A DNA stretch of 64,000 bases from an uncultured virus (IMG/VR IMGVR_UViG_3300002773_000047) (taxonomy: Duplodnaviria > Heunggongvirae > Uroviricota > Caudoviricetes), in the IMG/VR virus record IMGVR_UViG_3300002773_000047. One strand, 5' to 3'. Numbering within the stretch: the first letter of the stretch is position 1; each line of letters opens with the position of its first letter. The notes under the pieces were generated by a model. The model ran no database searches and was not told the DNA's origin. It saw nothing but the letters and a program-made list of their open reading frames with translations. Below are positions 4,456 through 45,385 of this stretch, one piece after another. The translations under genes and the position numbers were made by a program.

Positions 4456-4541
4456 ACGCACTCCAGCGCGATGCATTTGTGAAGGGCTCGCGCCGCCAGG
4501 GCGCGAGCGGGGAGGCGCGCCAGAGGGCGCGCGGGGGCCGA

Positions 4542-8232: not shown

Positions 8233-9047
8233 GGACGACCTCCTGCCCGCAGCTTCTTGCGGTGAGCGATCACCGACTCCTTGAACTCGTCGTAGAGGTC
8301 GCGGCGCTTCGTGTCCGCCAGCGCGACGCAGCCTTCCGCCCACAAGGCAGCGGCATCGGCATCGGTCCTGGTCTTCTGCAGGCGGTCATACAGCTTGTCG
8401 GCCAGCCGGTCGGCATCGGAAACCTGCCTCAGATCGTGCGCACCAGGTGTCTGGCCAGCGCCATTGCCGTCGTCGTCGTTCTCGCCGATTGCGACGTTGA
8501 AGATCAGCTTCAGCAGATAGCGCTGGGAGTAGGTCATCGCCGAGCCCTGGGCGTGGGTCTTCGTCATGACGTCGCCGCCCTTGGCACCCTTGCCGTCGGC
8601 GGGCATGTCGCACTTGTAGGTGCGCACGTGCCCGGCCGCGTGGGAGACGTAGCACAGCACGCGGATGTGGTCCTCTTTCGGGCTGTCGTCGGTGTCGAAG
8701 CTCAGCGCGAAGCCGTTCTTCGTGTAGATGGGGCGCAGCGCGCGGTTCAACTGCGCGTAGCTCGCGTACTTGCTGCGGGTCTGCGGGTTGACCGCATCGG
8801 CCGAGATCGGGCCCATGGCGGCCTGGGCCTTGGTCATCGCGGCGTTGAACTTCTGCTCGTTGGCGCGGGCATGCATGCGCTCGTGCATGTTCAGCAGCCG
8901 CTCCATCTTGTCGATGTCGACGTTCGGGTCGTTGGCGGCGGCCGTGATCGCGTGCAGCACGGTGGCGATCTCGTTGCGCGCCGGCAGCACCAGCGTTGCC
9001 TTTGGTGCGAAAACCTCGGGCTCGGTGGGGGCGAGTGCGGCGCTCAC
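8229..9047 (-). CDS. ERF-family single-strand annealing protein
   Basis: DIDKMERL, KYA, GSAMTYSQRYLL..FN, DDDG. Confidence 0.85.
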   Translation of the reverse strand: MSAALAPTEPEVFAPKATLVLPARNEIATVLHAITAAANDPNVDIDKMERLLNMHERMHARANEQKFNAAMTKAQAAMGPISADAVNPQTRSKYASYAQLNRALRPIYTKNGFALSFDTDDSPKEDHIRVLCYVSHAAGHVRTYKCDMPADGKGAKGGDVMTKTHAQGSAMTYSQRYLLKLIFNVAIGENDDDGNGAGQTPGAHDLRQVSDADRLADKLYDRLQKTRTDADAAALWAEGCVALADTKRRDLYDEFKESVIAHRKKLRAGGRP

Positions 9048-10244: not shown

Positions 10245-10297
10245 CCGCGGAAGTGCATTATGCAGAAGTGCATTGATGTGTCAATGCAGAAGTGCAT
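10245..10297. promoter_or_regulatory. OL operator cluster / PL
   Basis: ATGCAGAAGTGCAT at 10260-10273 and 10284-10297, partial copy at 10245-10258. Confidence 0.8.
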
Positions 10298-11164: not shown

Positions 11165-11216
11165 ATGCAGAAATACGTAATGCACTACTGCTTGAAATTG
11201 CAATGCAGAAGTGCAT
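11165..11216. promoter_or_regulatory. OR operator cluster / PR-PRM
   Basis: ATGCAGAAGTGCAT at 11203-11216; degenerate copies at 11180-11193 and 11165-11178. Confidence 0.8.
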
Positions 11217-16228: not shown

Positions 16229-16455
16229 CCACAGCACTCGCCATCAGCCAGGTGGCGGTATCCGCGCAGCGCAACCTCCATCAGATCGCCACGTACGACC
16301 GCGAATTGCGGCAGCGCGGCGCGCTGGTCGCGGCGGTGGCACTGAGCCCCTACCGCGCGGTGGAGCGCGCCCGTCTCGACGTGTGCGCCGAGCACTTCGC
16401 CGCGCTGCAGCCCGCCAACGACCTCGCCTTCGAGCAGAACCCGGAGCACGCATGA
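16225..16455 (+). CDS. Hypothetical protein
   Basis: AAGGAG SD; ATGA coupling. Confidence 0.6.
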   Translation: MTTALAISQVAVSAQRNLHQIATYDRELRQRGALVAAVALSPYRAVERARLDVCAEHFAALQPANDLAFEQNPEHA

Positions 16456-16979
16456 TCCCGTCGATCAATCCTTGGGACGCCGAGATCGAGGTGTTCGAGC
16501 AGCTGACGCTCGCGCGCCTTCTGAAGCACACCGAGCCCGAAGGCGAATGCCTCGCCTGGACGGGCCACGCCAACCTCGGCCGCAGCCCGCAGATCCGCCT
16601 CGGCGGCGCCAAGGGCCGGGCCTACAACGTCCGCCGTGTGCTGTGGGTGCTTACGCGCGGCAGCATCCGCGCAGATCGCGTGGTCACGGTGGACTGCGAC
16701 TGCGAGCTGTGCGTGCACCCCGACTGCCTCATCGCGATCCACCCGTCCAAGCTTCAGAAGGGGCAGCCGAAGTCGCTCCTGGCGTCGCGCCGAATCGCGA
16801 CGGCCCAGCGCAGGCTGTCGCCGATCTCCGAGGAAATGGTGCAGGAGATCCGGAGCAGCTCTGTTCCTGCTGTCGAGTTCGACCGGCGCTGGGGACTTGG
16901 CATCGGAACCTCTGCGCACATCCGGTCCGGAGCGCGCCGCGCCCCGCTGGGCCTGGGCATGTTGGGAGGTGCCGCCTAA
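16452..16979 (+). CDS. Degenerate HNH/His-Me finger protein with C-terminal HTH-like part
   Basis: ECLAWTG...RRVLW...C.CELCVHPDCL. Confidence 0.55.
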   Translation: MIPSINPWDAEIEVFEQLTLARLLKHTEPEGECLAWTGHANLGRSPQIRLGGAKGRAYNVRRVLWVLTRGSIRADRVVTVDCDCELCVHPDCLIAIHPSKLQKGQPKSLLASRRIATAQRRLSPISEEMVQEIRSSSVPAVEFDRRWGLGIGTSAHIRSGARRAPLGLGMLGGAA

Positions 16980-32340: not shown

Positions 32341-33633
32341 ATGTCCGAAAGCAAAACGAACGTCCCGTCGGGCGCCACCGGCGCCATGATCCAGCAGGCG
32401 GTAGGGGTCTTCCACACCTGCATGCAGCGCAACACGACGCTGAACCGCCTCACGGGCAAGATGCCCACCATCGAGAACGCCATCGCGGGCGCGAAGCGTC
32501 AGTCGAAGCCCACGATGCCCATCGTGCGCGCCGACGACCTGGGCAAGAACAAGGGTGACGAGATCACCTTTCACCTCGACAACCCGATCAGCGGTTACCC
32601 GATCATGGGCAGCGAATACGCCGAGGGCAAGGGCGTGGGCATGTCGTTCTCGGAAGACCGGCTGCGCGTCAACCAGGCGCGCTTCCCGGTGGACATGGGC
32701 AACACCATGACCCAGATCCGCAGCCCCTACGACCTGCGCCGCCTGGGCCGCCCGAAGGCGCAGCAGCTGATGAACGACTACATCGACCAGTCGATCCTCG
32801 TTCACATGGCCGGCGCCCGCGGCTTCCACGACAACAAGATCGAGTGGCGCGTGCCGCTCGCCTCGCACCCGAAGTTCAAGGAAATCATGGTGAACCGGGT
32901 GAAGGCGCCGACGCGCAACCGGCACCTGGTGGTCGGCGGTGGCGCCGTGGGCGAGGTGAAGGCGAACGCTGGCGAGCTGACCATTGCCACGACGGACATG
33001 TTCACCATGGATGCGGTGGACTCGCTGCGCTCCTGGATGGACCAGATCCCGCTGCCGCCGCCCCCGGTGGAGTTCGAGGGCGACCTGGCCGCCACCGACA
33101 GCCCAATCCGCGTTGCGCTGGTGTCGCCCGCGCAGTACAGCGGCTTCGCCACGAACCCGGACTTCCGTAGCTTCCAGGCCAACGCCTATGCGCGCGCCCG
33201 GCTGGCGAAGGACCACCCGCTGTTCCTCGGCGACGTGGGCCTCTGGAACGGCATCCTCATCGTGAAGATGCCCAAGGCGATCCGCTTCTACGCTGGCGAT
33301 CAGCTCAACTACTGCGCTGCGTACGACAGCGAGGTCGAGTCCAGCGTCGTCGTGCCGGCGTCGTTCGGCACCACCTTCGCCGTGGACCGCGCGCTGCTGC
33401 TGGGCGGCCAGGCGCTGGCGCAGGCCTTCGGCAGCTCGGAGCACAGCGGCATCCCGTTCTTCTGGTCGGAAGAGAAGGGTGACCACGGCGACAAGCTCGA
33501 AATCCTGATCGGCGCCATCCTGGGCATGTCGAAGATCCGCTTCGCAGTGGACCACGGCGACAGCACCCAGTTCACCGACCACGGCGTGACGGTGCTGGAC
33601 ACGGCCGTTCGCATCATCAAGCCGCGCGGCTGA
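32341..33633 (+). CDS. Major capsid protein, N4-gp56 / DUF4043 type
   Basis: DL.K.KGD.I.F.L, EGKG..M, HPLF.G..G.WNG, R.LLLG.QA, K.RF; AGGAGG SD. Confidence 0.85.
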   Translation: MSESKTNVPSGATGAMIQQAVGVFHTCMQRNTTLNRLTGKMPTIENAIAGAKRQSKPTMPIVRADDLGKNKGDEITFHLDNPISGYPIMGSEYAEGKGVGMSFSEDRLRVNQARFPVDMGNTMTQIRSPYDLRRLGRPKAQQLMNDYIDQSILVHMAGARGFHDNKIEWRVPLASHPKFKEIMVNRVKAPTRNRHLVVGGGAVGEVKANAGELTIATTDMFTMDAVDSLRSWMDQIPLPPPPVEFEGDLAATDSPIRVALVSPAQYSGFATNPDFRSFQANAYARARLAKDHPLFLGDVGLWNGILIVKMPKAIRFYAGDQLNYCAAYDSEVESSVVVPASFGTTFAVDRALLLGGQALAQAFGSSEHSGIPFFWSEEKGDHGDKLEILIGAILGMSKIRFAVDHGDSTQFTDHGVTVLDTAVRIIKPRG

Positions 33634-33699
33634 TGACCTCGGGGGCCGGCTGCGGTTGGCCTCCGCCTTCACCTTTCTCGAATCACACAGGAGGCCAAC

Positions 33700-34179
33700 A
33701 TGGCAACTATTAAGAAACTGGGGCTGGGCCTGCAGCAGTTCGGCGGCTTCACCCCTTACGGCAACCTCACCACGCTGCGCGCCGCGCTGCTGACCGCGGC
33801 CGATGGCGGCGCGCTCAACGCGGACAGCGCCACGCCCCTCGGCATCGGCGATGTCGTGGTGCTCGACAAGCTGCCCGAGGGCATGGTGCTGGAAGACGCG
33901 CAACTGATCGTGTCGACGGCGATGACCGCCGCAGTAACCGGCTCGCTGGGCTTCATCTACGCCGACGGTGTGGACAGCGCCGACGTGCCGCAGGACGCCG
34001 CGTATTTCGGTGCCGGCCTGGCGCTCAACGCGACCGGCCGCCTGCGCGCCGCCACCGCCAAGGTGCCGGTGAAGCTGCCCAAGCCCGCGCTGCTGGTGCT
34101 GACCATCGCAGGCGCGGCCAACGCGAAGGCTTCGCGCGTGGACGTGATCGTGCACGGCGAGCGCGGCGGCCCGAAGTAA
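33700..34179 (+). CDS. Capsid decoration / cement-like protein
   Basis: Beta-rich 159 aa after MCP; AGGAGG SD. Confidence 0.6.
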   Translation: MATIKKLGLGLQQFGGFTPYGNLTTLRAALLTAADGGALNADSATPLGIGDVVVLDKLPEGMVLEDAQLIVSTAMTAAVTGSLGFIYADGVDSADVPQDAAYFGAGLALNATGRLRAATAKVPVKLPKPALLVLTIAGAANAKASRVDVIVHGERGGPK

Positions 34180-34248
34180 TCGACACCTGAGCCGAGCGGG
34201 GCGGGGCCATGTGCTTCGCCCCTTCGTCACATCCAAGAGGAGCAACCC

Positions 34249-34692
34249 ATGTCCGCCAGCCAACTCGTCGCCATCACCTACGTCGGCACGGAAACGCCGT
34301 TCCAGGACCGCATCTACCGATCGCGCCTGACCTTCGACCCCGACCAGACCCGCGAGGTGCCGGCCGAGCTCGCTGCCAAGTTCCTGCTGCACGCAGACGT
34401 GTTCAAGGCGGCCGACGAAAAGGCTGCCGAGGCGACCGCGAAGAGCAAGAAGGCCGCCGCGCCGAAGGACGACACGGCGGAGACGCTCGAAGCCGCCCAG
34501 AAGGCCGAGGAAGAGCGGCGCCAGAAGGAGGGCCAGCGCTTCGAACTGCACCAGCAGATCGACAAGATGGACAAGCAAGCGCTGCGCGACTGGACGAAGA
34601 CGAAGTTCCAGCAGGAGCTGCCCGGCAACCTCGGCATCGAGAAGATGCGCGATCGCGTCAAGGGCTTCGTGGATCAGTTCGGAGCCCCATGA
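34249..34692 (+). CDS. Hypothetical virion-assembly protein
   Basis: GAGGAG SD; coupled to the next gene. Confidence 0.65.
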   Translation: MSASQLVAITYVGTETPFQDRIYRSRLTFDPDQTREVPAELAAKFLLHADVFKAADEKAAEATAKSKKAAAPKDDTAETLEAAQKAEEERRQKEGQRFELHQQIDKMDKQALRDWTKTKFQQELPGNLGIEKMRDRVKGFVDQFGAP

Positions 34693-35384
34693 CCCTGCAG
34701 GACTTGATCCGGCGCTTCCGCGTCCTGGCCAACGACAAGCGGCAGCCCTATTTCTGGGCAGATGCCGATGTCGTGGACTGGCTGAACGATGCCGAGCGGC
34801 AGGCTGCGGTGCGCGGCCGGCTGCTGCGCGAGGACGCGGACCCTGAGGTGTGCCGCATCGCGCTCGCATCGGGGCAGGCGGTGTACCCGCTGCACGCGGC
34901 GGTGTTCGAGATCATCAGCCTGCGCCTGCTGCCAGTCAACGGCGACCGCGCGCGCTCGATCAGGCTCGTTTCGCGCGAGTGGCTGGATGCCGAGGTGCCC
35001 GGCTGGCGTGAGCGTGTAGACCCGGCGTGCTTCGCGATCCAGGATGACACTTCCTTGCGCCTGGTCGGCACGTTCGAGGCCGGCGATGTGCTCGTGCTCG
35101 AGTGCTATCGGACGCCCCTGGAGTCAATGGCGCTGCCCCCGGGCGGCTCGCCGCCGCCGGTGGTCCGCAGCACGCCCGATATCCATGCGACGCACCACGA
35201 GCACCTGCTGCTGTGGGCGTTGCATAAGGCTTTCAGCATCCCCGACACCGAGACGTTCGACCCGGCACGCTCGGACAGGGCTGAAGCGGGCTTCACCGCC
35301 TACTTCGGGCCGATGCCCGATAGCGACCTCCGCCGTATCACGCGCGAGGATGTTCCACATCACAACGTGCTGATCCTGCCATGA
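34689..35384 (+). CDS. Head-tail adaptor-like protein
   Basis: MTL.DLI..FR....D...PY.W.D......LN.A; H..L..WAL.KAF. Confidence 0.65.
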   Translation: MTLQDLIRRFRVLANDKRQPYFWADADVVDWLNDAERQAAVRGRLLREDADPEVCRIALASGQAVYPLHAAVFEIISLRLLPVNGDRARSIRLVSREWLDAEVPGWRERVDPACFAIQDDTSLRLVGTFEAGDVLVLECYRTPLESMALPPGGSPPPVVRSTPDIHATHHEHLLLWALHKAFSIPDTETFDPARSDRAEAGFTAYFGPMPDSDLRRITREDVPHHNVLILP

Positions 35385-35602
35385 GCACGACCCTTGTTCA
35401 CGTAGAGCTCCGCGTCGGCGAGACGGTGCGCATCGGCAACACGCTGGTGACGCTCTCTCAGAAGTCGGGACAGCGCGCGCGTCTCGCCATCTGCGCCGAC
35501 GCGAACACCCCCATCCAGCGCCCAGCCGGGCGCGCAACCACTGGCGCGCAGGAGTGCGCTTCTTCCGCTGAAGAGGCCGCAAATGGCAAACACCCTGTAT
35601 GA
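35381..35602 (+). CDS. CsrA/RsmA-like RNA-binding protein
   Basis: RVGETVRIGNTLVTLSQKSGQRARLAICADANTPIQR aligns by eye with E. coli CsrA [38 protein letters not shown]. Confidence 0.6.
   Translation: MSTTLVHVELRVGETVRIGNTLVTLSQKSGQRARLAICADANTPIQRPAGRATTGAQECASSAEEAANGKHPV
35544..35559 (+). promoter_or_regulatory. AGGA-loop hairpin 1
   Basis: GCGCGC-AGGA-GTGCGC, 23 nt before ATG 35583. Confidence 0.55.
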
Positions 35603-35990
35603 CGCTGCGCGGCAGCGCTTCCTGGAAGCTCAGCTCAACTGGGCGACCGACACCATCAAAGTTCTGTTGGTGGACACTGGCGCCTACACGCCGCAGACGG
35701 CCATCCACCAGTACCTCGCGGACATCCCGATCTCGGCGCGCATCGCGGGCCCCGTGACGCTGACCGCGAAGACCACCACCGGCGGCGCGGCCGACGGCGC
35801 GGACGTGACGTTCACGGCTGTCTCGGGCGCGAGCATCGAGGCCATCGTGATCTACCGCGACACGGGCACCGAGGCGACCTCGCCGCTGATCGCTTTCATC
35901 GACACGGCCACGGGCCTGCCAATCACGCCCAACGGCGGCGACATCATCGTCACCTGGGACAACGGCACCAACAAGATCTTCAAGGTCTGA
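35583..35990 (+). CDS. Virion structural (tail-associated) protein
   Basis: DTIKVLLV, AIVIY, PLIAFID, PNGGDI.V.W. Confidence 0.75.
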   Translation: MANTLYDAARQRFLEAQLNWATDTIKVLLVDTGAYTPQTAIHQYLADIPISARIAGPVTLTAKTTTGGAADGADVTFTAVSGASIEAIVIYRDTGTEATSPLIAFIDTATGLPITPNGGDIIVTWDNGTNKIFKV

Positions 35991-35992
35991 TC

Positions 35993-36343
35993 GTGGGGGG
36001 CGCAGGAGTGCAGGACACGCAATCTCTCGCGGCGTCGCCGCAGAAGCCGCCGCCGATCATCATCGGCGTGGAGGGCATCGCCCCGAAGCCCATCGAGCTG
36101 ACGCCGGCCATCGTGCCGGGCATCAACTGGCGCATGGTGGGCGCGCTGCCGCCGTTCCAGATGTTCGTCCACGAGCTGGCGCCGTGCCCGCCGGGGCGCG
36201 ACAGCCAGGAGTGGGCCATCGACTACGCGCTGCGCTTCGCTGGTCAGCGTGGCGACGACGTGCTCATGGGCGAGTACAGCGCCTGGCACGCGGCAAAGGG
36301 GTACTGGCCGAACGAAACGCCGCTGGGCGTGCTGAAGGACTGA
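35993..36343 (+). CDS. Hypothetical protein (start uncertain, 35993 or 36008)
   Basis: Fills the gap in the tail operon. Confidence 0.6.
   Translation: MGGAGVQDTQSLAASPQKPPPIIIGVEGIAPKPIELTPAIVPGINWRMVGALPPFQMFVHELAPCPPGRDSQEWAIDYALRFAGQRGDDVLMGEYSAWHAAKGYWPNETPLGVLKD
36000..36011 (+). promoter_or_regulatory. AGGA-loop hairpin 2
   Basis: GCGC-AGGA-GTGC overlapping GTG 36008. Confidence 0.5.
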
Positions 36344-36355
36344 GGGAGCGCGAGT

Positions 36356-37618
36356 ATGGGCCACCGAATCGCCGGCGTCCTCTACGGGGAGAACATCGTT
36401 GGCCGCATTCTTGAAGTGCGGCAAGGCCTTGATCCGTTGCTGGTGTCTTCAGATCTGATTTCCTACCCCGGCTCCGTCGGGAGCAGCGGCGCGTTTGCCG
36501 CGCTTGCACCGGACTTGAAGGCCGGTGTGGTCACGTTCAACAGCGGCATCTCGGGGTCGAATTTTCGCTACTACCCTGACATGAACACGATGGCCAACCC
36601 AGTGACGCCGGCCGCCGGCTTTGCTGCAACCACCACGGTGTGCGCGATTTCGAACGATCACTACGCGGTCGGCGGCACCAGCTCTCCCTACCTCTACGTC
36701 TTCAAGCGGAGCGACCACTCGCTGGTCACGGTGGCCACGACCAACCTCGGCACCATCTATGCGTTGGACTTCTCGCCGGACGGTACAAAGCTGGCGGTGA
36801 CGCACGGCAGTTCGCCCTATATCCGCGTCTATAACACCTCGACGTGGGCTTATACCGATGCGGTGACGGTGCCCGGCGGCGGTGGCAATTACGGACTCGT
36901 GTTCACCTCGGATAGCACGCGCTTTGTCGTGATGTGTGCTTCTTCGCCCTTCATTTCGATCTACAACGCTACGACCATGGTGCGAAGCTACGGCTACGCC
37001 GCGAGCAGCAAGTACACCCCGACGACCAACTACATCCGCCCCCTCGCGCGGCATCCCACTACGGCAAACTCGATCTTGATGGCGTTCGGCACCTCGCCGT
37101 TCATCGCGGAGTTCAATGCGGACACCCAGGTCTTCACGGATTTCACTGCCCTGACGACCGGTGGCGTGATCGGGCCGGGCTACAGCCTGACGGTCGATCC
37201 AGATCCAACGGAGGACGCGGTCTACCTCCGCCACAACACTGGTTCGACATCGCCAACCCGGACGATGTCGAAGTTCAGGATCTCCACGCGCGCACCGTTC
37301 CCGGCGCAGTCGCCACTGTTCCGCAACGCCATGTGGGGCAGCACTGGCGCGCTGACGCCATTTGTCATCACTTACGACACCCCCTACAAGATCACGGGCA
37401 CGGTGCGGGACATCAGCAACAACCCCGTGGCGCGCGTGGTGCGCGCGCATCGACGAGATACCGGTGAGCTCGCCGCCCAAACCACCTCGAGCGCGAGCAC
37501 CGGCAACTACGACCTGCGCGTGCCGGACATCGGGCCTTACGACGTGCAGTTCATGACGGCCGCCGGCGAGCTGCTGAACGACCTGTTCTACGCGCAGACG
37601 GAGCCGCAACCGGTCTAG
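36356..37618 (+). CDS. Beta-propeller protein with C-terminal Ig-like domain; candidate receptor-binding protein
   Basis: Repeated blades FSPDGTKLAV..SSPYI.VY, FTSDS....V...SSPFI.IY; C-terminal ITGTVRD. Confidence 0.65.
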   Translation: MGHRIAGVLYGENIVGRILEVRQGLDPLLVSSDLISYPGSVGSSGAFAALAPDLKAGVVTFNSGISGSNFRYYPDMNTMANPVTPAAGFAATTTVCAISNDHYAVGGTSSPYLYVFKRSDHSLVTVATTNLGTIYALDFSPDGTKLAVTHGSSPYIRVYNTSTWAYTDAVTVPGGGGNYGLVFTSDSTRFVVMCASSPFISIYNATTMVRSYGYAASSKYTPTTNYIRPLARHPTTANSILMAFGTSPFIAEFNADTQVFTDFTALTTGGVIGPGYSLTVDPDPTEDAVYLRHNTGSTSPTRTMSKFRISTRAPFPAQSPLFRNAMWGSTGALTPFVITYDTPYKITGTVRDISNNPVARVVRAHRRDTGELAAQTTSSASTGNYDLRVPDIGPYDVQFMTAAGELLNDLFYAQTEPQPV

Positions 37619-37620
37619 CG

Positions 37621-40600
37621 ATGCCGTACACGCCCCCGACCAGCCCGCTGAACGCTTCGTGGGTCGGGGCACCGACCTACCGAGGGCCCGCGCGCGTCAT
37701 CCTCGGCACCTGGGTCACGCCGAATCAGTGGATCTACCAGCCGGCCAGCGCCGAGGGCGGCATGGGCACGCCAACGGTCATCGGGCAGCAGCTCGTGGCG
37801 GCTGCAGGTGCCGCTGACCAGACCCAATGGGGTACGACCTTCGCGCTGACGAAGGTTCTCTACTACCGGCCGCCGCAGTACACCATCACCGCTTCGTGGG
37901 TCGGCAAGCCGGTCTACATCCGCACCATCGGCGCATCCCTGTCGGTCACCTGGGACCAGCAGCGCGCCTACGTCAATCCGCCGGGCTTTCTGTCCGAGGC
38001 GACGGGCACGCCCTTCGTCACGCAGCAGCAGTTCGTGCGGCCGGTGGGCTTCACGCCGCTGGCCTTCGGTTCCACGTACGCGATCTTCCCCTACCAGTAC
38101 GCGCCGCCGCGCTGGACGATCAATGCGAGCTGGGTGGGCAAGCCGGCCTACACACCCGCGGTGGGCGTGCGCGATGGGCTCTGGACGCTGCCGTCAGAGG
38201 ACAAGTACATCCCGCTGACGGGCTGGGACTCGTGCAGCTTCGGCGCCGCCACGATCCAGAACTACCTCACCTACGTTGCGCCGGGTGGGTTCGACAGCCT
38301 GGCCGTCGGCGCGCACCAGGTGCGCAATGCGGCGGGCGCGCTGCGGCCAACGGGCATCGCCAGCCAGCTCTCGTTCGGTGCCGCCCTCGTGGCGTTCGGA
38401 CAGCGCAAGGTCACGCCCACGGGCGTGGATCTGTCGGGCTTCGGCGCGGCCGCCGTGGTACTGAAGAACAGGCGTCTCTTCCCAGGTGGCTTCGATGCGA
38501 TGGCCGGTGGCAACCCGACCATCATCAACCGGAACCGGTACATCGCAGCCGGCAACATCGTGCCGCCGGCGCTCGGCACGAGTTCGATGGTCTGGCTCTA
38601 CACCCGATACCTGCTGCCGAGCGGGCTGGTGGCCACCGGTTTCGCGAGCACCAACCGGGTGAGCCACGACCGGCAGTATGTGCAGCTGAACGCGGGCATC
38701 CCCACGCCAGGCTTCGGCACAGCCTGGATCAGCCAGGGCACGCGGCTGGTGGCTCCGGCGGGCGCGTTCCTCGATGCCGTCGGCAGGCCGAACGTGGGCG
38801 GCACGCGCTACATCACGCCAACGGGCTGGGACTCGTCGGCCTTCGGCACACGGGTCATCCCTGAATCGCAGACCGTGGCGCCGCAGGGCTTCCGGGAGGT
38901 CTGGGGCGACACGAACATCAAGAACCAGCTGTCGTTCGTGCGGCCGCCCGGGTTCGAGACGAACGTGCAGGAGCAATACCGCTGGGGGCGGGCGCAGGTC
39001 TACAACCTGCGGCAGTACGTGGTGCAGAACTACGACCCTACCGACGGGCTCAACCCGCCGCCGTGGCCGCAGTGGACGGCTATCGAGAACCGCAACCGCG
39101 TGGTGGGCGCGATCGGCATCGCGCCGCCGCGTGTGGGCGAGCCGCTGGTGTTCAACAACGCCCGCGTGATCGCGCTGGCTGGCATGACGCCTCCTGGCTA
39201 TCCGGGCACGACGCCGGCAGGCCTGGTCGCCTATGGCGTGCGGCTGCTGCCGCTGGAGGGCATCGAGCCGCCGCCGCTGCTGAACTGGAACGCGGTCTAC
39301 AACGCGGCGCGCGTGGTGGCGCCGGCCGGGGCCGATACGCAGCTCTTCGGCGTGCCCGCGCTGGAGAACACGCGGCGCTACTACCTGCGGATCGGGAACA
39401 TCGACTCGGCGGCCTACGGCACCGCCTTCATCGACTTCGCGATTCGGACGCTGGACATCGAGTCCCGCTACGCGATCCAACCGCCCGACGTGCCGCTTCC
39501 CGAGGTCAAGTTGCACACGCGCTACGTCGATCCGAGGGGCGATGACATGTCGCGCATCGGGCTGGCCGCGCTGTCCATTCACTTCAACATCCTCCTGCCC
39601 AGGTGGACGCACCGGGACTTCTTCGGCGAGCCGCGTGTGCACAACGTGACCCCCGAAATGCGGGGCTACGGATGGAACTCGGAGGAGTTCGGTGACGCCT
39701 TCGTGCGGCTGCAGTACCGGCCCGTGGCGCCGGATGGCGCCGCCACTCAGCTCTTCGGGCAGGTCAAGATCGCCGACCGCAAGCAGACCATCGCGGTGCC
39801 GGGCAACAACTTCATGCGCGTGGGCGACAAGCTGGTGGTGACACGGGCTGGTGCACCGCCGTACGCCACGCAGTGGATCATCCAGGACCAGGAGATTGCC
39901 TCTGAGAGCGAGTTCGGCAAGCCAGGGCTGAACCAGTATGTCCTCTACGTGCCCGGCATCACCGCACCGCCGCTGGGCGACGCGACGGTGCGCAGCAATG
40001 GCGTCATGGTCGACGCCGGCATCAAGGTGGACGGCTACGGCGAGCCCACCGTTTCGCTGAAGAGACGCTATCTCACGGTGGCCGAGTGGCCCGACGTGCA
40101 GGTCTTCGAGCCGACGCCCGCGCGAATCACGCCGCACACCATCTACGCGGTGGTCGAGGCGCCGGCACAGGCCATCCGCAACCACCCGCCCGCCAACCTG
40201 CACTATGTCGGCCAGACGCTGGAATACGGGCCGGGCGCCCGGTTTGGGCAGCACTCGGTGCGCACCTACCGCGGCATCCTGTCGCCCTCGACCGTGGGGA
40301 ACACCGCGCAGCTCGGTGCACCCTCTGTCCAGCTGCACCGGCGCTACCTGGAGCCGGCGGGTATGCAGGCCTACCGCATGGGCTGGGTGGTGCTGGGTGA
40401 CGGCACGCAGTTCGTGAAGCAGTTCGGCGGCGCCGACATGCAGCTCTTCGGGCAGCCGGCGGTGGCGCGCGGGCCGTACCTGGGGCCGCAGACCGTTCGT
40501 CCTGTGGGCCTCGCGCCGCCGGACTTCGGTGTGACCTGGGTGTCGCTGTTGCACCGGACCTTCCAGTTCACCGGCTTCAACGCGCTGGCGATGGGCGGGT

Positions 40601-40947
40601 CGCGCGGGGAGCCGCCGTATCAGTGGCAGTCGCTCCACGTTGGCCCCCTGATGCCGACCATTCCGCCTGGCATCGACGCGGCTGCTTTCGGGACCGCGTG
40701 GATCTCGCTACGCATCCGGGGCCTGGAGCCGCAGGGCTTCGAGGCGTTCGCAAGCGAGTACGACCCGGAGAATTTCGCCGCGCGCATGCACGTGCGCAAT
40801 GCCTATGTTCCGTCGGGCCCGGCGGCGCGCACGCTCGTGCCTGTGGGGATCGACGCAGCGCAGGCCGGCGTGCCCAATGCCAAGCTGGCCGTGCACTACA
40901 TCCGGCCCGACGGCAACGCCGATCAGTACCGAAAAGGAGCCTTCTAA
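37621..40947 (+). CDS. Large repetitive tail/virion protein
   Basis: 1108 aa with many P.G.....FG repeats. Confidence 0.75.
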   Translation: MPYTPPTSPLNASWVGAPTYRGPARVILGTWVTPNQWIYQPASAEGGMGTPTVIGQQLVAAAGAADQTQWGTTFALTKVLYYRPPQYTITASWVGKPVYIRTIGASLSVTWDQQRAYVNPPGFLSEATGTPFVTQQQFVRPVGFTPLAFGSTYAIFPYQYAPPRWTINASWVGKPAYTPAVGVRDGLWTLPSEDKYIPLTGWDSCSFGAATIQNYLTYVAPGGFDSLAVGAHQVRNAAGALRPTGIASQLSFGAALVAFGQRKVTPTGVDLSGFGAAAVVLKNRRLFPGGFDAMAGGNPTIINRNRYIAAGNIVPPALGTSSMVWLYTRYLLPSGLVATGFASTNRVSHDRQYVQLNAGIPTPGFGTAWISQGTRLVAPAGAFLDAVGRPNVGGTRYITPTGWDSSAFGTRVIPESQTVAPQGFREVWGDTNIKNQLSFVRPPGFETNVQEQYRWGRAQVYNLRQYVVQNYDPTDGLNPPPWPQWTAIENRNRVVGAIGIAPPRVGEPLVFNNARVIALAGMTPPGYPGTTPAGLVAYGVRLLPLEGIEPPPLLNWNAVYNAARVVAPAGADTQLFGVPALENTRRYYLRIGNIDSAAYGTAFIDFAIRTLDIESRYAIQPPDVPLPEVKLHTRYVDPRGDDMSRIGLAALSIHFNILLPRWTHRDFFGEPRVHNVTPEMRGYGWNSEEFGDAFVRLQYRPVAPDGAATQLFGQVKIADRKQTIAVPGNNFMRVGDKLVVTRAGAPPYATQWIIQDQEIASESEFGKPGLNQYVLYVPGITAPPLGDATVRSNGVMVDAGIKVDGYGEPTVSLKRRYLTVAEWPDVQVFEPTPARITPHTIYAVVEAPAQAIRNHPPANLHYVGQTLEYGPGARFGQHSVRTYRGILSPSTVGNTAQLGAPSVQLHRRYLEPAGMQAYRMGWVVLGDGTQFVKQFGGADMQLFGQPAVARGPYLGPQTVRPVGLAPPDFGVTWVSLLHRTFQFTGFNALAMGGSRGEPPYQWQSLHVGPLMPTIPPGIDAAAFGTAWISLRIRGLEPQGFEAFASEYDPENFAARMHVRNAYVPSGPAARTLVPVGIDAAQAGVPNAKLAVHYIRPDGNADQYRKGAF

Positions 40948-42134
40948 TGACCGACACCTCCCTCATGCCGGTGGCCGGCATCAACAACGTCTCGGAGGAT
41001 GCTGCCATGCAGCGCGGCGGCGATGCCGCGCGGTTGTTCGTGCGCGATGCGGTGAACGTGGACATCACCCCGGCGGGGAAGGCATCGGTTCGCACGGGCG
41101 AGCGCCTGGTGAGCGCGGCACGGTTCCGCGACGTGTGGCAAAGCCCACTGCACCGCGACACCTTCGGCACTCTCGCTGGCAAGTGGGTCAAGATCAACCC
41201 GGCCGACTGGTCGCACGAAGAGCTTGCTACGGTGGGGGAGGGTGCAGAACACGCAGTGTTGAACAGCCTCGTCTGCGTAGCCGGGCCTGCAGGTCTGTTC
41301 ACATTCGACGGCAGCGCGGCGCAGCGCCTGACGCTTGACACGCCGCCCGCACCGCTGCTGACTGCCGGCACAGGCTCACTGGAGCCGGGCACCTACGGCG
41401 CGGCCGTGGCTTGGCTGCGCGGCGCGCAGGAATCCGCCCCGTCCGAGCTCGCAACCGTCGAAGTGGGCCCAAGCGGAGCGCTCGAGGTGACTCTGCCCAT
41501 CTGGCTCGACCCTACGCTCACTGGCGTTCGGCTGTACCTGACGCGGCGTGATGGCGGCGAGCTGCTGCGCGCCGGAGACTGGCCGGCCGGTACCGCGTCG
41601 ATCCACCTACCACTGCTGCCCCAGCTCGGCGCGGCGGCCCAGTTCCGCCACCTGTCGCCGATGCCCACAGGGCGTTTTCTCTCGTACTGGCGCGGCCGGC
41701 TGCTGGTCGCCCGCGGCAACTTGCTGCGCTGGTCTGAAGCACTGGCCTATCACCTGCACGACGAGCGGCACGGGTTCGTTCAGATGCCGCAGCGCATCAC
41801 CTTCGTGCAGCCTGTCGACGGCGGTGTGTGGGTCGGGCAGGTCGATCACGTCGTCTTCCTTCGCGGCAGCGCGCCCGCCGAGTTCTCGGCGGAGCGCAAA
41901 GGAGGCCGCGCACCGGTGCCTGGCAGCGCCATCCTCGCGTCGCCGGATGCTCTCGGCGGTGACCTCACCGCAGGCGGCAGTGACGCGGCGGTCTGGCTGG
42001 CGGAAAACGGCTACGTCGCCGGTACCGCCTCCGGCGCGCTGGTGGAGCTGCATGCGGGCGTGCTGAAGGGCATCACGGGCCGTGCCGGAACCTCTGTAGT
42101 GTTTGGCCGGCGCCTGCTGACCGCTGTAGTCTGA
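40947..42134 (+). CDS. Tail/virion structural protein
   Basis: GINN....RDAVNVD N-terminus; AAAGGAG SD; TAATG coupling. Confidence 0.7.
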   Translation: MTDTSLMPVAGINNVSEDAAMQRGGDAARLFVRDAVNVDITPAGKASVRTGERLVSAARFRDVWQSPLHRDTFGTLAGKWVKINPADWSHEELATVGEGAEHAVLNSLVCVAGPAGLFTFDGSAAQRLTLDTPPAPLLTAGTGSLEPGTYGAAVAWLRGAQESAPSELATVEVGPSGALEVTLPIWLDPTLTGVRLYLTRRDGGELLRAGDWPAGTASIHLPLLPQLGAAAQFRHLSPMPTGRFLSYWRGRLLVARGNLLRWSEALAYHLHDERHGFVQMPQRITFVQPVDGGVWVGQVDHVVFLRGSAPAEFSAERKGGRAPVPGSAILASPDALGGDLTAGGSDAAVWLAENGYVAGTASGALVELHAGVLKGITGRAGTSVVFGRRLLTAVV

Positions 42135-42166
42135 GGTCTTCCGTCCCGGGCATCCGGGAATCATTC

Positions 42167-42208
42167 GCTGCGCAGGAGTGCGGCATAGGACTACTGGAGC
42201 TTCCTATG
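42167..42208 (+). promoter_or_regulatory. AGGA-loop hairpin 3 plus start-codon-sequestering hairpin
   Basis: GCTGCGC-AGGA-GTGCGGC, then CATAGGA...TCCTATG enclosing a GGAG SD and pairing ATG 42206. Confidence 0.6.
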
Positions 42209-42784
42209 ACGACGCTGCGCAAAGAACTGGCTGCGGACCTGAACCGCGAAACCTACGATGTCACCGAGCAGGGCATCTACTTCCCCCGTCAAGGCGTGCT
42301 TGCACAGGGCGAGTACTTCGACCGTATCAACGGCGGCGAGTGGACCCGCACCAAGAACAAGATCGTCATCGAAGGGCTGGCGCACATCCTGAACGTGGCG
42401 CTGGGCAGCACGGCCAAGCCGGCGGGCTACTTCCTGGCCCTGTTCAGCGGCGCGGCGGCGCCGGCCGACAACTGGACGGCCGCCAGCTTCGCGGCCACCG
42501 CGTCCGAAATCGTCAGCCTCACCGAGGGCTACACCAGCCCGACCCGACCGGCCTGGACCTCGGCAAACACCAACACCGGTTCGATCGACAACATGGCGGC
42601 CGTCGCCACGGTCACCATCGCCACCGCCGGCCAGCTCAACGTGACTGGCGCGGCAATGCTGACGAACAACGCGCGAGGGGGCACGACCGGTGCGCTCGTG
42701 TCGGCGACGAAGTACGCTGCCGCCCGCGTGTTCCAGAACGGCGACACCTACGACATCGGCTACCGACTCAGCCTGACCGTCTGA
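42206..42784 (+). CDS. Virion structural protein
   Basis: N.IV.EGL...L, Y.ALF, E...Y....R..W. Confidence 0.7.
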   Translation: MTTLRKELAADLNRETYDVTEQGIYFPRQGVLAQGEYFDRINGGEWTRTKNKIVIEGLAHILNVALGSTAKPAGYFLALFSGAAAPADNWTAASFAATASEIVSLTEGYTSPTRPAWTSANTNTGSIDNMAAVATVTIATAGQLNVTGAAMLTNNARGGTTGALVSATKYAAARVFQNGDTYDIGYRLSLTV

Positions 42785-42787
42785 TCC

Positions 42788-45385
42788 ATGCACGCACCGC
42801 GCCCCTACGGGCGCTTTGCCGAGCAGGCGGAGCTGTCCCCGGAAGATGCCGCTGCCGTCGAGCGGCTGGCCAGGACCGCGACCAACTTCAAGCAGCTGTC
42901 CGCTTTGGACAGCCTGAAGCGCGTCGCGGCGCTGCCCAGCGGCCGCCAGGCGGTGGCGATCGACATGGGCGGCGTGTTCCGCATCCTGGTGCTGGAGCGC
43001 CACGAGAACCCGGAGCACGAGGTCACCGGCCTCGCCGAGACGAACGTGCCCATGCTGTTCTCCGGCGCCATCACTCGCGCCCAGGTGCTGGAAGGCGAGG
43101 GGGTGGGCATCAAGCTGACCGAGCAGACGCGCCGCCGGCTCGCGGGCTACCGTGACGACGAGGAGCTGCCGCCGAAGGATGTGGCGCTGCAGCGTTTCCG
43201 CATCGACTACCACGACCGGTTCGCCTACTTCCGACCCGAGTACAGCGGCATCTACACGTTCACGCAGTACGTGAAGCAGCGCCCGACCTGGTACAGCGGT
43301 GCCATGGCCGAGGTGGCGCAGGTGGTCGGCGGCTACGGCCGGCAGGTGCTGGCGGACCTGCCCGACGATCCCGTCGAGCGGGCCCGCATGCGCGTGCCCG
43401 AGCGCTTCATGCGCGAGATCCGGCGCGAGGTCGCGGGCCTGCGACTGCCCGGCTACACCGGCTTCCCGGACCGCGAGGGCCAGTTCCAGTACCGCTACCA
43501 GCACGGGGAAGGCAACGCCGTGTCGTTCGGCACCGACGGAAGGCCCTGGCTGCTGCGCATCAGCACGCGGGGCGTCTTCGCCATGCCCTTGCCGTTGGTG
43601 CCGGCGACAACCGCCGCCGCCTTCCGCGCCTACGTCGAGGAGGTCGGCGATGCCGAGCTGCTGAAGGTGCTGGATCGCTTCGGCGGACTGCCTTCGGGTG
43701 AGACGTTCCCCGATGACGAACAGGACTTCGAGGCTTGGCGGCGCGCGGGCGTATTCATCAAGGTGTGCGACTGCGCCGACTTCTACACGCGGCAGGCCTT
43801 CTATGCCGCCGGAGGTTGGTCCCTGAACAGCCGCGGCAGCGAGGGCTTCAACACCTGTTGGGACCGCGACGACGCGGGCCTTCTGCACGCGCACGCCTAC
43901 AAGATGAAGCTGCGGCTGGGCGCGGCCGCCAACGGCGGGCGGTTGAAGGCCTCGTGGCAGTTCGACGGCGAGGACGAGGCCGCCCGCGCACACGGCTATC
44001 TGGATCGGGTCTTCGAGCAGCTGCGCGATGGCTCCCACCGCTCGCGCGCGGCGGCCTACAAGATTCGCCGCGCCACGGCCGCGCAGATCCTGGCGCGCGC
44101 TTCGGTGTCGAACGGGCCCGACCACGACTACTGGGACGCGCTCGAGCTGGAGCCGATCGCTGTGCACCAGGGGAATGTGGCGCGGGTGGGCACGGGCCCC
44201 ATGTACTGGCCGGGCAAGAACCCGAAGTCGATGGGGCGCTTGAAGTTTCCGGAACTGCGCGGGCTGGGCTGCGAGTCGTTCGTGATGGTGTCGGAGGACT
44301 ACGCCGGCCCCGCCGTGCGATGCGACACCATCGTCTTCGGCTGCTACGTTGACGACGAGCTACAGGTGGTCAAGTATTTCTACGACGAGCGCAAGGTGCA
44401 GGAGAAGGTGCAGAGCACCTTCGAGAAATTCATGATCGTCGGCCAGTGGGAGAAGACCGAAACCACCGGGCTGTCTGGCCTGATGGGCTACTTCTACACC
44501 TCGGCATTCGACGACCGGCAGGTGGCGCCGCCGGTCAGCACCACGACGCACATCACCGGCATCGACATGGGCTACGGCCAGCCAGCCTTCGCCACGCCGC
44601 CGCTCCTGTACTGCGTCGGCTCGCTTTCGCGGGCCCGCTACTACTACCACCGCACGACGGTGAAGAGCACCTCGGGCTTCGGCATCGACGTGGCCGCGTG
44701 CGTGCCGGTGTTCGAGCGCGACTGCATCCTCTACCCCTACACCGAGAGCACCTCTGGCCGCGCCGAGTCGGAGAAGACCGAGCAGTTCGCGATGGCGGAC
44801 CCGACCTCCTACCAGCTCTGGTGCTACGACAACATCTTTCACTACATGGGGCAGACGGACAACCACAACAAGGGTGATCCGCCCTCGAAAGACGGTGTGC
44901 CTGTCTACGTCGACACGCTGGTCTACTCGCCCACCGAAGTGAGCGACTATGCCGACAGCGGCAACTGGTTCAACCTGCCGCCCGGCGGGTTCCTCGACGT
45001 GACCGCTGTTTGCGGGCCCTACACCTCGCGCACGTCGAGCACTCACCACGCGAACGGCGTTGTCATCGGCGGCGAGGCGCCGGGCTTCGAGCCGTTCTCC
45101 AGCGAGAAGCTGTTCCCGGCCGAGCAGTCGGGCCGGCTCAGCGTGTCGATGAAGGGCGCCGGCTCTGTCGTCGCCCACAAGGACATTCCGCATTCCTGGT
45201 ACTTCGGCTTCTCGCCGGAAGAGCAGACCTACTTCTACCGCGACGCGGTGCATGTAGCGATCGGCGACAGCAGCTACGCCAGCATCTACGAACAGGACCA
45301 GAACGGCCTGCGCCGCCGCTGGGGCTACACGGCGCTGGCCGACAACCGCAGCGCGCACCACTTCATCGGAGTTATCAATGAGTAG
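42788..45385 (+). CDS. Large tail/virion protein
   Basis: 865-aa ORF in the structural operon. Confidence 0.7.
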   Translation: MHAPRPYGRFAEQAELSPEDAAAVERLARTATNFKQLSALDSLKRVAALPSGRQAVAIDMGGVFRILVLERHENPEHEVTGLAETNVPMLFSGAITRAQVLEGEGVGIKLTEQTRRRLAGYRDDEELPPKDVALQRFRIDYHDRFAYFRPEYSGIYTFTQYVKQRPTWYSGAMAEVAQVVGGYGRQVLADLPDDPVERARMRVPERFMREIRREVAGLRLPGYTGFPDREGQFQYRYQHGEGNAVSFGTDGRPWLLRISTRGVFAMPLPLVPATTAAAFRAYVEEVGDAELLKVLDRFGGLPSGETFPDDEQDFEAWRRAGVFIKVCDCADFYTRQAFYAAGGWSLNSRGSEGFNTCWDRDDAGLLHAHAYKMKLRLGAAANGGRLKASWQFDGEDEAARAHGYLDRVFEQLRDGSHRSRAAAYKIRRATAAQILARASVSNGPDHDYWDALELEPIAVHQGNVARVGTGPMYWPGKNPKSMGRLKFPELRGLGCESFVMVSEDYAGPAVRCDTIVFGCYVDDELQVVKYFYDERKVQEKVQSTFEKFMIVGQWEKTETTGLSGLMGYFYTSAFDDRQVAPPVSTTTHITGIDMGYGQPAFATPPLLYCVGSLSRARYYYHRTTVKSTSGFGIDVAACVPVFERDCILYPYTESTSGRAESEKTEQFAMADPTSYQLWCYDNIFHYMGQTDNHNKGDPPSKDGVPVYVDTLVYSPTEVSDYADSGNWFNLPPGGFLDVTAVCGPYTSRTSSTHHANGVVIGGEAPGFEPFSSEKLFPAEQSGRLSVSMKGAGSVVAHKDIPHSWYFGFSPEEQTYFYRDAVHVAIGDSSYASIYEQDQNGLRRRWGYTALADNRSAHHFIGVINE

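Follow-up and report, generated by a model that had tools for sequence, protein, structure and literature searches.

The 12-mer GCGCAGGAGTGC recurs in the late structural region of an uncultured tailed phage, represented here by a 64,000-nucleotide (nt) stretch of DNA (IMG/VR record IMGVR_UViG_3300002773_000047; the whole stretch is called the window). We favour, with moderate confidence, the reading that this 12-mer represents the core of an RNA operator that acts in cis in the leaders or initiation regions of late virion genes and is most probably recognised by a CsrA-family dimer encoded by the phage itself. Late protein synthesis is probably controlled at translation by the phage itself, because the gene for the CsrA-like protein and the hairpin motif were kept or lost together in its relatives. 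We infer both the binding of the protein to the operator and the sign of the regulation. An initial annotation had proposed a self-contained phage Csr-like circuit, which was still the best reading after the analysis in view of the CsrA-type protein, the motif that travelled with its gene, and the absence of both from the phages Y7 and Y11. The window phage itself is a temperate podophage of the F116 (Hollowayvirus) type, about 64 kb long, with 66% G+C.

The window was found to hold exactly three copies of the 12-mer, at 35546, 36000, and 42170, all on the + strand and each at or just before a gene start, as initially annotated. The chance expectation was 0.07 copies, and three or more copies appeared in 0 of 100 shuffles, a figure that is post hoc. 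Site A (mini-hairpin 35543-35560, with the 12-mer at 35546-35557; + strand) lay within the 3' end of the CsrA-like open reading frame (35381-35602, + strand), 37 nt 5' of the ATG at 35583 that opens a phrog_644 gene (35583-35990, + strand; 2.4e-50), which is annotated as “minor tail subunit” in relatives. Site B (36000-36011, + strand) overlapped the initiation region of a phrog_11163 gene (35993-36343, + strand; 6.6e-38), for which the start could be GTG 35993, 7 nt upstream of the motif, or the in-frame GTG 36008 inside it. In the window clade, this gene probably begins with a GTG or ATG at the motif or 5' of it, and the motif would then fall within the first codons. Site C (mini-hairpin 42167-42184, with the 12-mer at 42170-42181; + strand) was located 36 nt 5' of the ATG at 42206 of a phrog_8123 gene (42206-42784, + strand; 2.6e-82). 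Each copy had been described as a stem with an AGGA loop. This held for site A (7 base pairs (bp), -11.1 kcal/mol, equalled by 6 of 200 shuffles) and site C (7 bp, -11.6 kcal/mol, equalled by 3 of 200), whose outer pairs differed yet still paired as described, but at site B the stem was weak. Two minor observations concern B-type sites. In the related locus L016, an ATG (8637-8639) stood 9 nt after site B, and the same place was ACG in the window (36017-36019) and in L014 and ACC in L015. On the - strand of the window, a copy of the motif with one mismatch (GCGCTGGAGTGCG, 4457-4469) stood directly before an ATG, and could be a fourth B-type site or mere Shine-Dalgarno context.

F116, 8P, and Dartukuta had the motif at all three of these junctions, despite differing flanks. 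Bcep22, GP4, and PEp14 had one copy, which followed a conserved sigma-70-like promoter and was part of the major capsid gene leader; Parlo, ZX1, and POI1126 likewise had the motif in this leader. The position of the CsrA-like gene varied: it was behind the adaptor gene in phages of the F116 type, ahead of the capsid gene in those of the Bcep22 type, and, in POI1126, 1.3 kb from the leader with divergent genes in between; at every locus seen it was within the late structural operon. Relatives were gathered with two sub-alignments of the family proteins, and many of the loci were near-duplicates, some of them IMG/VR copies of named phages. In 102 loci (1.27 Mb), a first pattern matched the gene strand 189 times and the opposite strand 6 times. 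With the relaxed pattern [AG]CGCA.GA.{1,2}TG[CT], in which the first base is A or G, a match was present in 101 of the 105 gene-bearing loci, and the strand counts were 202 against 11, while the backward-pattern control gave 3 and 7 matches. Among the four gene-bearing loci without a match, three ended at the gene and the fourth ended 2.1 kb past it. A recurrent match inside the capsid gene was discarded as a false positive arising from a conserved peptide, and a fourth match in 8P, antisense in an exonuclease gene, was taken as chance. The Pseudoalteromonas phage Y7 and the Shewanella phage Y11 had the same module, with a phrog_644 protein 87% identical to that of the window, and had no CsrA-like gene; phrog_644 directly followed the adaptor gene. 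No motif was found at junctions A, B, and C of Y7 or at junctions A and B of Y11, the locus of which ended before C, and a pattern scan of the whole records gave 0 matches in Y7 and 1 unrelated match in Y11. By these comparisons, the hairpin motif is truly conserved and accompanies the gene. As a separate observation, the Bcep22-type loci (L051, L052, L085, L087, and others) had the sigma-70-like promoter TTGCAA/TTGCAT, 17 nt, GATAAT about 40-75 nt 5' of the motif, and its -35 region was often within an inverted repeat, GGTTG..CAACC, a possible transcription-factor site.

Alignment of the copies gave the consensus GCGC-A-N-G-A-(N)-GUGC, which formed a mini-hairpin of 4-7 bp with a G.U pair and a loop of 4-5 nt. 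The 5' half, GCGCA.GA, was invariant at sites A, B, C, and in the capsid leader, also where it lay outside the long helix described below, and G.U-compatible variants of the motif occurred in relatives. Site A was read in two different protein frames (ARMSA/ARRSA and AQECA/AHECA), so the constraint is on the nucleic acid. CsrA-family dimers bind GGA in hairpin loops and thereby control translation, and recognition of this kind had been suggested for the AGGA loops. The loop was AGGA in the window, but the variable position N was G, T, A, or C depending on the phage, and in many relatives T, A, or C stood in place of the first loop G while the remaining bases of the motif were unchanged. Textbook GGA recognition is therefore not supported. 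At site B, N was G in all 9 unique sites and T in two variant sites (L018 and L044). In F116, 8P, and others, the AGGAG of the site B motif was itself the Shine-Dalgarno sequence, 3-10 nt before the ATG.

The motif acts as RNA, because its 3' half pairs with the region around the ribosome-binding site and changes in one strand are compensated in the other. Among 41 capsid leaders, this 3' half paired with the bases lying between the Shine-Dalgarno sequence and the start codon. The mean duplex energy was -15.5 kcal/mol with the leader's own partner and -10.7 kcal/mol with the partners of other leaders, and the observed value was reached in 0 of 5000 permutations, with relatedness among the leaders uncorrected. 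Changes on both sides of the helix were seen in the capsid-leader variants GGAUGUGCC/GGCACAUCC, GGAGCUGCC/GGUAGCUCC, GGAGUGUG/CACACUCC, and AAGAGUGC/GCACUCUU. At site A, the free fold contained the mini-hairpin and a short 5-bp hairpin (CUUCU/GAAGA) over the Shine-Dalgarno region of the phrog_644 gene (35561-35582, + strand); when the 5' arm of the motif was made unavailable in the constrained fold, the 3' arm lengthened the covering hairpin to 11 bp. At site C, the mini-hairpin was followed in the predicted fold by a second hairpin, AUAGGA/UCCUAU (42185-42207, + strand), whose loop contains the Shine-Dalgarno sequence and in which two bases of the start codon, A and U, are paired, and the same design was present in F116, 8P, Dartukuta, and L044. 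A further conserved block of the capsid leaders, (T)CAACCTTT(C)A, was located just 5' of the Shine-Dalgarno sequence (alignment A5, columns ~48-58) and may be a translational enhancer.

The 73-residue protein encoded at 35381-35602 had been matched by eye to the β core of CsrA, and its place in the CsrA family was borne out by profile, predicted fold, and predicted dimer. It matched PHROG 8397, “CsrA-like regulator”, with an E-value of 3.9e-18 (66.2 bits; residues 7-62 on profile positions 4-59 of 64). A family profile was built from 36 sequences (the window protein and those of viral contigs), of which 26 matched Pfam CsrA (PF02599) at E <= 0.01, the best at 3.7e-9. Searched against solved structures, this profile found RsmE 2jpp at 8.1e-8, 2bti at 8.2e-5, and 1y00 at 8.9e-5, and the top 7 matches were all CsrA or RsmE. 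Detection required the family profile, since the single sequence found RsmE only at an E-value of 0.31. In the AlphaFold2 model, residues 1-50 had a predicted local distance difference test (pLDDT) score of 85-97 and formed a five-stranded β chain fold, and the chain was disordered beyond residue 53. The C-terminal helix was missing from the model, as initially annotated, and residues 54-72 had pLDDT values below 50. The first 14 Foldseek matches listed were all CsrA, RsmA, or RsmE chains, with root-mean-square deviations of 0.7-1.5 Å over 35-47 columns and template-modelling (TM) scores on the target of 0.57-0.78. The homodimer model scored 0.60 compared with 0.00 for the best of 3 controls, the runs agreed in at least 93% of the contacts, and the partner pLDDT was at least 79. 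Of 30 proteins solved as pairs, 20 reached the mark of 0.60, compared with 1 among 23 proteins solved as single chains. The cross-chain contacts (5-10/33-38 and 16-19/45-46) were of the intertwined CsrA type, in which strand 1 meets strand 4 and strand 5 meets strand 2 of the other chain; the pass of the dimer model may reflect memory of solved CsrA dimers. The hallmark of the 36 members was KSGQxAR, and G13, K28, and G30 were invariant. An equivalent of the RNA-binding residue R44 had also been assigned; in the window protein, Arg47 did align with R44 of RsmE/CsrA, but only 22 of the 36 aligned members had Arg at this position. The motif or a variant was nevertheless present at all 36 family loci. 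No link was seen between the loop length or the variable base and features of the protein; the L054 and L056 proteins, about 75% identical by eye, went with motifs of 12 and 13 nt, respectively.

Several results weigh against an operator read by the phage's own protein or limit the evidence for it. As many as 37 other 12-mers had at least three copies on the + strand of the window, and with one mismatch allowed the 12-mer gave 4 matches where 2.0 were expected, so the repeat count alone is weak evidence. The 4-bp stem of site B was worth only -4.8 kcal/mol and was equalled by 16 of 200 shuffles. The GGA by which canonical CsrA sites are defined was not conserved: among unique sites, the base at N was G at 5 of 14 for site A, at 7 of 13 for site C, and in 33 of 41 capsid leaders. 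When 28 capsid leaders were aligned with MAFFT, RNAalifold found no more than 4 pairs of the long-range helix, which was attributed to one-base length differences that shift the register. The co-occurrence counts overstate the number of independent cases because of the near-duplicate loci. In addition, all loci belonged to one broad group of ~60-kb podophages, the shared descent of which inflates these counts, and Y7 and Y11 were close to each other and possibly represent a single loss event. On the protein side, Pfam CsrA matched the window protein at 16.3 bits (E 0.0096), below the gathering cut-off of 27 bits. The Foldseek E-values were weak (best 7.2e-3, none <= 0.001) because the domain is short. 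The Arg equivalent to R44 was missing in 14 of the 36 members, including the F116, 8P(-like), and Dartukuta-like proteins, whose phages keep the motif.

The alternative that survived best, which we consider rather unlikely, is that the motif is a self-sufficient RNA structure, such as a stabiliser of the 5' end or an inherent brake that slows initiation by way of the helix over the ribosome-binding site, co-inherited with the gene and served by no dedicated protein. The independent support for the long-range helix fits this explanation, as do the restriction to one related phage group and the perhaps single loss in Y7 and Y11. However, the 5' half was invariant in four structural contexts and even outside the long helix, and this invariance points to recognition in trans. 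The gene and the motif also stayed together although the position of the gene varied among phage types, and they were jointly absent from Y7 and Y11.

It is improbable that the hairpins are instead sites for the host CsrA/RsmA or another host RNA-binding factor, with the phage protein acting elsewhere, for example as a host-directed “moron”. In three papers, the gene is indeed treated as a host-directed moron (PMC9144972, PMC10269572, PMC8450108), and many copies of the hairpin have the AGGA loop. But GGA was lost at many sites (AUGA, AAGA, and ACGA) where the remaining motif was intact, and the gene lay in the late structural operon at every locus seen rather than in an accessory region. F116, moreover, encodes a canonical CsrA at another genomic location as well. 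Among the hosts of such phages, Burkholderia cepacia and B. cenocepacia were reported to lack a chromosomal csrA (PMC7366521), and therefore the host protein would not be needed.

A role at the DNA level, as an operator or promoter element for a phage transcription factor, or as a boxB-like antitermination signal as the initial annotation had offered for an alternative, is very unlikely. The copies at site A were partly palindromic (GCGCA..TGCGC), and the motif of the Bcep22 type was about 20 nt past the -10 box of the sigma-70-like promoter, a usual place for an operator. These features are opposed by the strand bias of 202 to 11 and by the G.U-compatible substitutions and the compensatory changes with the region before the AUG. 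In the window, no promoter-like site was found near A, B, or C, and the motif regions had no Rfam match. Antitermination could draw on the position of site C after a terminator-like hairpin, CCCGG-GCAT-CCGGG (42145-42158, + strand), just 5' of it, which was retained in F116 and 8P with altered stem bases and failed the terminator scan. This position nevertheless speaks against a nut-type site, which acts from upstream, whereas site C was downstream of the sole terminator-like hairpin nearby, and sites A and B were at gene starts inside the operon. The boxB proposal was thus not borne out. Antitermination of the lambda N/boxB type has a hairpin upstream of terminators together with boxA and a cognate N-like protein; this placement of the hairpin was not found at A, B, or C, and no search for an N-like protein was made. 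Finally, the probability is negligible that a 12-mer rich in G+C and containing a Shine-Dalgarno sequence was repeated three times by chance: the other triple 12-mers and the one-mismatch count would allow it, but it was ruled out by conservation at homologous junctions rather than by copy number, the motif standing at the same junctions in phages that were ~73% identical or unalignable in DNA.

For an operator read by the phage's own CsrA-family protein, the following mechanism is proposed. The CsrA-family dimer encoded in the late operon would recognise the mini-hairpin. The operator would alternate between two states, the mini-hairpin itself and a fold in which the 3' half is given to a competing helix over the downstream Shine-Dalgarno sequence or AUG. 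At site B, the motif and the ribosome-binding site overlap, so that bound protein would block initiation and repression is predicted. The motif is 30-50 nt upstream at sites A and C and in the capsid leaders of the Bcep22 type; if the protein held the RNA there in the mini-hairpin form, the ribosome-binding site would be released, and activation is predicted because the mini-hairpin and the covering helix share nucleotides. The sign would be the opposite if the protein bound the 5' half in single-stranded form. Tentatively, the proposal may be extended to the whole temperate podophage lineage (F116-, Bcep22-, GP4-, PEp14-, Parlo-, Lastavirus-, and POI1126-type), which might own a CsrA-derived switch with a changed RNA code, GCGC-ANGA(N)-GUGC, for which GGA is unneeded and R44 dispensable, and which opens the capsid and tail starts and shuts the starts inside the motif. 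If this is true, capsid and tail proteins would be translated only after the upstream late genes had been expressed, and the gene would be an essential-type late regulator instead of a “moron”.

The system resembled CsrA/RsmA/RsmE (PF02599; RsmE-RNA structures 2jpp, 2mf0, and others) in its small β-strand protein, predicted as an intertwined dimer, and in the short hairpin at or just upstream of the ribosome-binding site with a purine-rich loop that is often AGGA. It differed in that the phage protein had no C-terminal helix in the model, fell below the Pfam cut-off, and belonged to a family often without the R44 equivalent. On the RNA side, the core was GCGCA.GA, the loop was 4-5 nt long, and GGA appeared dispensable. 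The phage regulator also differed in being encoded in the late operon and in appearing to serve the virion genes of the phage itself, and no sponge RNA was seen. In RNA phages, the coat protein binds an operator hairpin, and in T4 the RegA protein acts similarly, so that a phage protein on a small hairpin at a start site sets the translation of a phage gene. The layout of site B was like these, whereas the folds are unrelated and each genome here has several operators, of which some are far 5' of the start codon. At ymdA, a leader structure hides the ribosome-binding site, and upstream binding of CsrA destabilises this structure and activates translation (PMC7492729). Comparably, the phage mini-hairpin shares nucleotides with the helix over the ribosome-binding site, but activation is only predicted for the phage, and the protein, the motif, and the genetic setting in late genes are all different. 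Canonical phage CsrA homologues (RsmM/Bci type; F116 YP_164288; AUS531phi Bci) are likewise phage-encoded members of the CsrA family, and F116 has both kinds. They differ from the protein described here in scoring far above the Pfam cut-off and in lying outside the structural module; the F116 copy (YP_164288; F116 16448-16600) matched Pfam CsrA with 79 bits. These canonical copies have been studied for effects on host quorum sensing (PMC7366521, PMC7546807), and Bci is described as of the canonical type, its gene distinct from the one in the structural module (PMC7546807).

The claim that no description of this arrangement existed held for the cis element, of which no description was found by full-text searching in the accessible literature, but not for the gene, which was already catalogued (PHROG 8397 and RefSeq) and discussed as a moron. 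RefSeq applied the label “CsrA-like regulator” to F116p47, Bcep22 gp54, GP4 gp04, and others. A tblastn search with the gene found 75 phage records at E <= 1e-3 and 84 at E <= 1e-2, with Pseudomonas, Ralstonia, Burkholderia, and Erwinia as hosts and one phage labelled as a Bacillus phage. By Sobrero and Valverde, Bcep22, DC1, and GP4 are listed among the csrA-positive phages, and the F116 entry is the different, canonical gene (PMC7366521). The gene was named a moron in the papers on JC1 and CSP3 (PMC9144972, PMC10269572), and one peptide of its product was detected in JC1 virions (PMC9144972). Knock-down of the csrA homologue of phage PTXU04 gave small plaques (PMC11879866); this homologue was not among the tblastn matches of the ZX1 protein and may lie outside the phrog_8397-type family. 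Phage-borne CsrA genes have so far been read as tools of host manipulation, and the conserved cis element gives the CsrA-like gene of the structural module a concrete candidate target in the capsid and tail messages of the phage itself. Annotation is affected because many phage records label the gene as “transcriptional regulator”, “moron”, or “hypothetical”. If the proposal is true, the protein would be a natural example of the CsrA fold with altered RNA specificity, which would inform how the fold reads RNA and might provide an orthogonal translational switch.

In the window, F116, and 8P, the genes were arranged in the common order SU10-like adaptor, CsrA-like gene, phrog_644, phrog_11163, and, further on, phrog_8123. 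The head-tail adaptor gene (SU10 adaptor-like; 34692-35384, + strand) matched PF24175 at 4.2e-26 and phrog_399 at 1.3e-44, and its stop overlapped the start of the CsrA-like gene as ATGA. The window DNA was ~73% identical to that of F116-like Pseudomonas phages across half of the region 33000-43000. The nearest record, G001, was a complete provirus of 64,641 bp that had 93% of sampled words in common with the window, and its only CsrA-type gene was the divergent copy. Homologues of the phrog_644 protein (35583-35990) were 34-66% identical in 396 Mycobacterium phage records and 68-69% identical in two Xanthomonas phages of 200 kb, a host range of unusual breadth. Dartukuta (L006, vB_BspP_Dartukuta), recorded as a Bacillus phage, had a module of the F116 type with a phrog_644 protein 89% identical to that of the window, and it carried the CsrA-like gene and all three motif sites; its recorded host may be wrong. 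Two other repeats were observed elsewhere in the window. The sequence ATGCAGAAGTGCAT occurred three times within 1 kb (10260-10273, 10284-10297, and 11203-11216), with the inverted-repeat arms ATGCA..TGCAT, and this set resembled the repressor operators of an early or immunity region. The sequence CCCTGTAGGGTT occurred three times on the + strand (23263, 31036, and 51244), with the inverted-repeat arms CCCT..AGGG.

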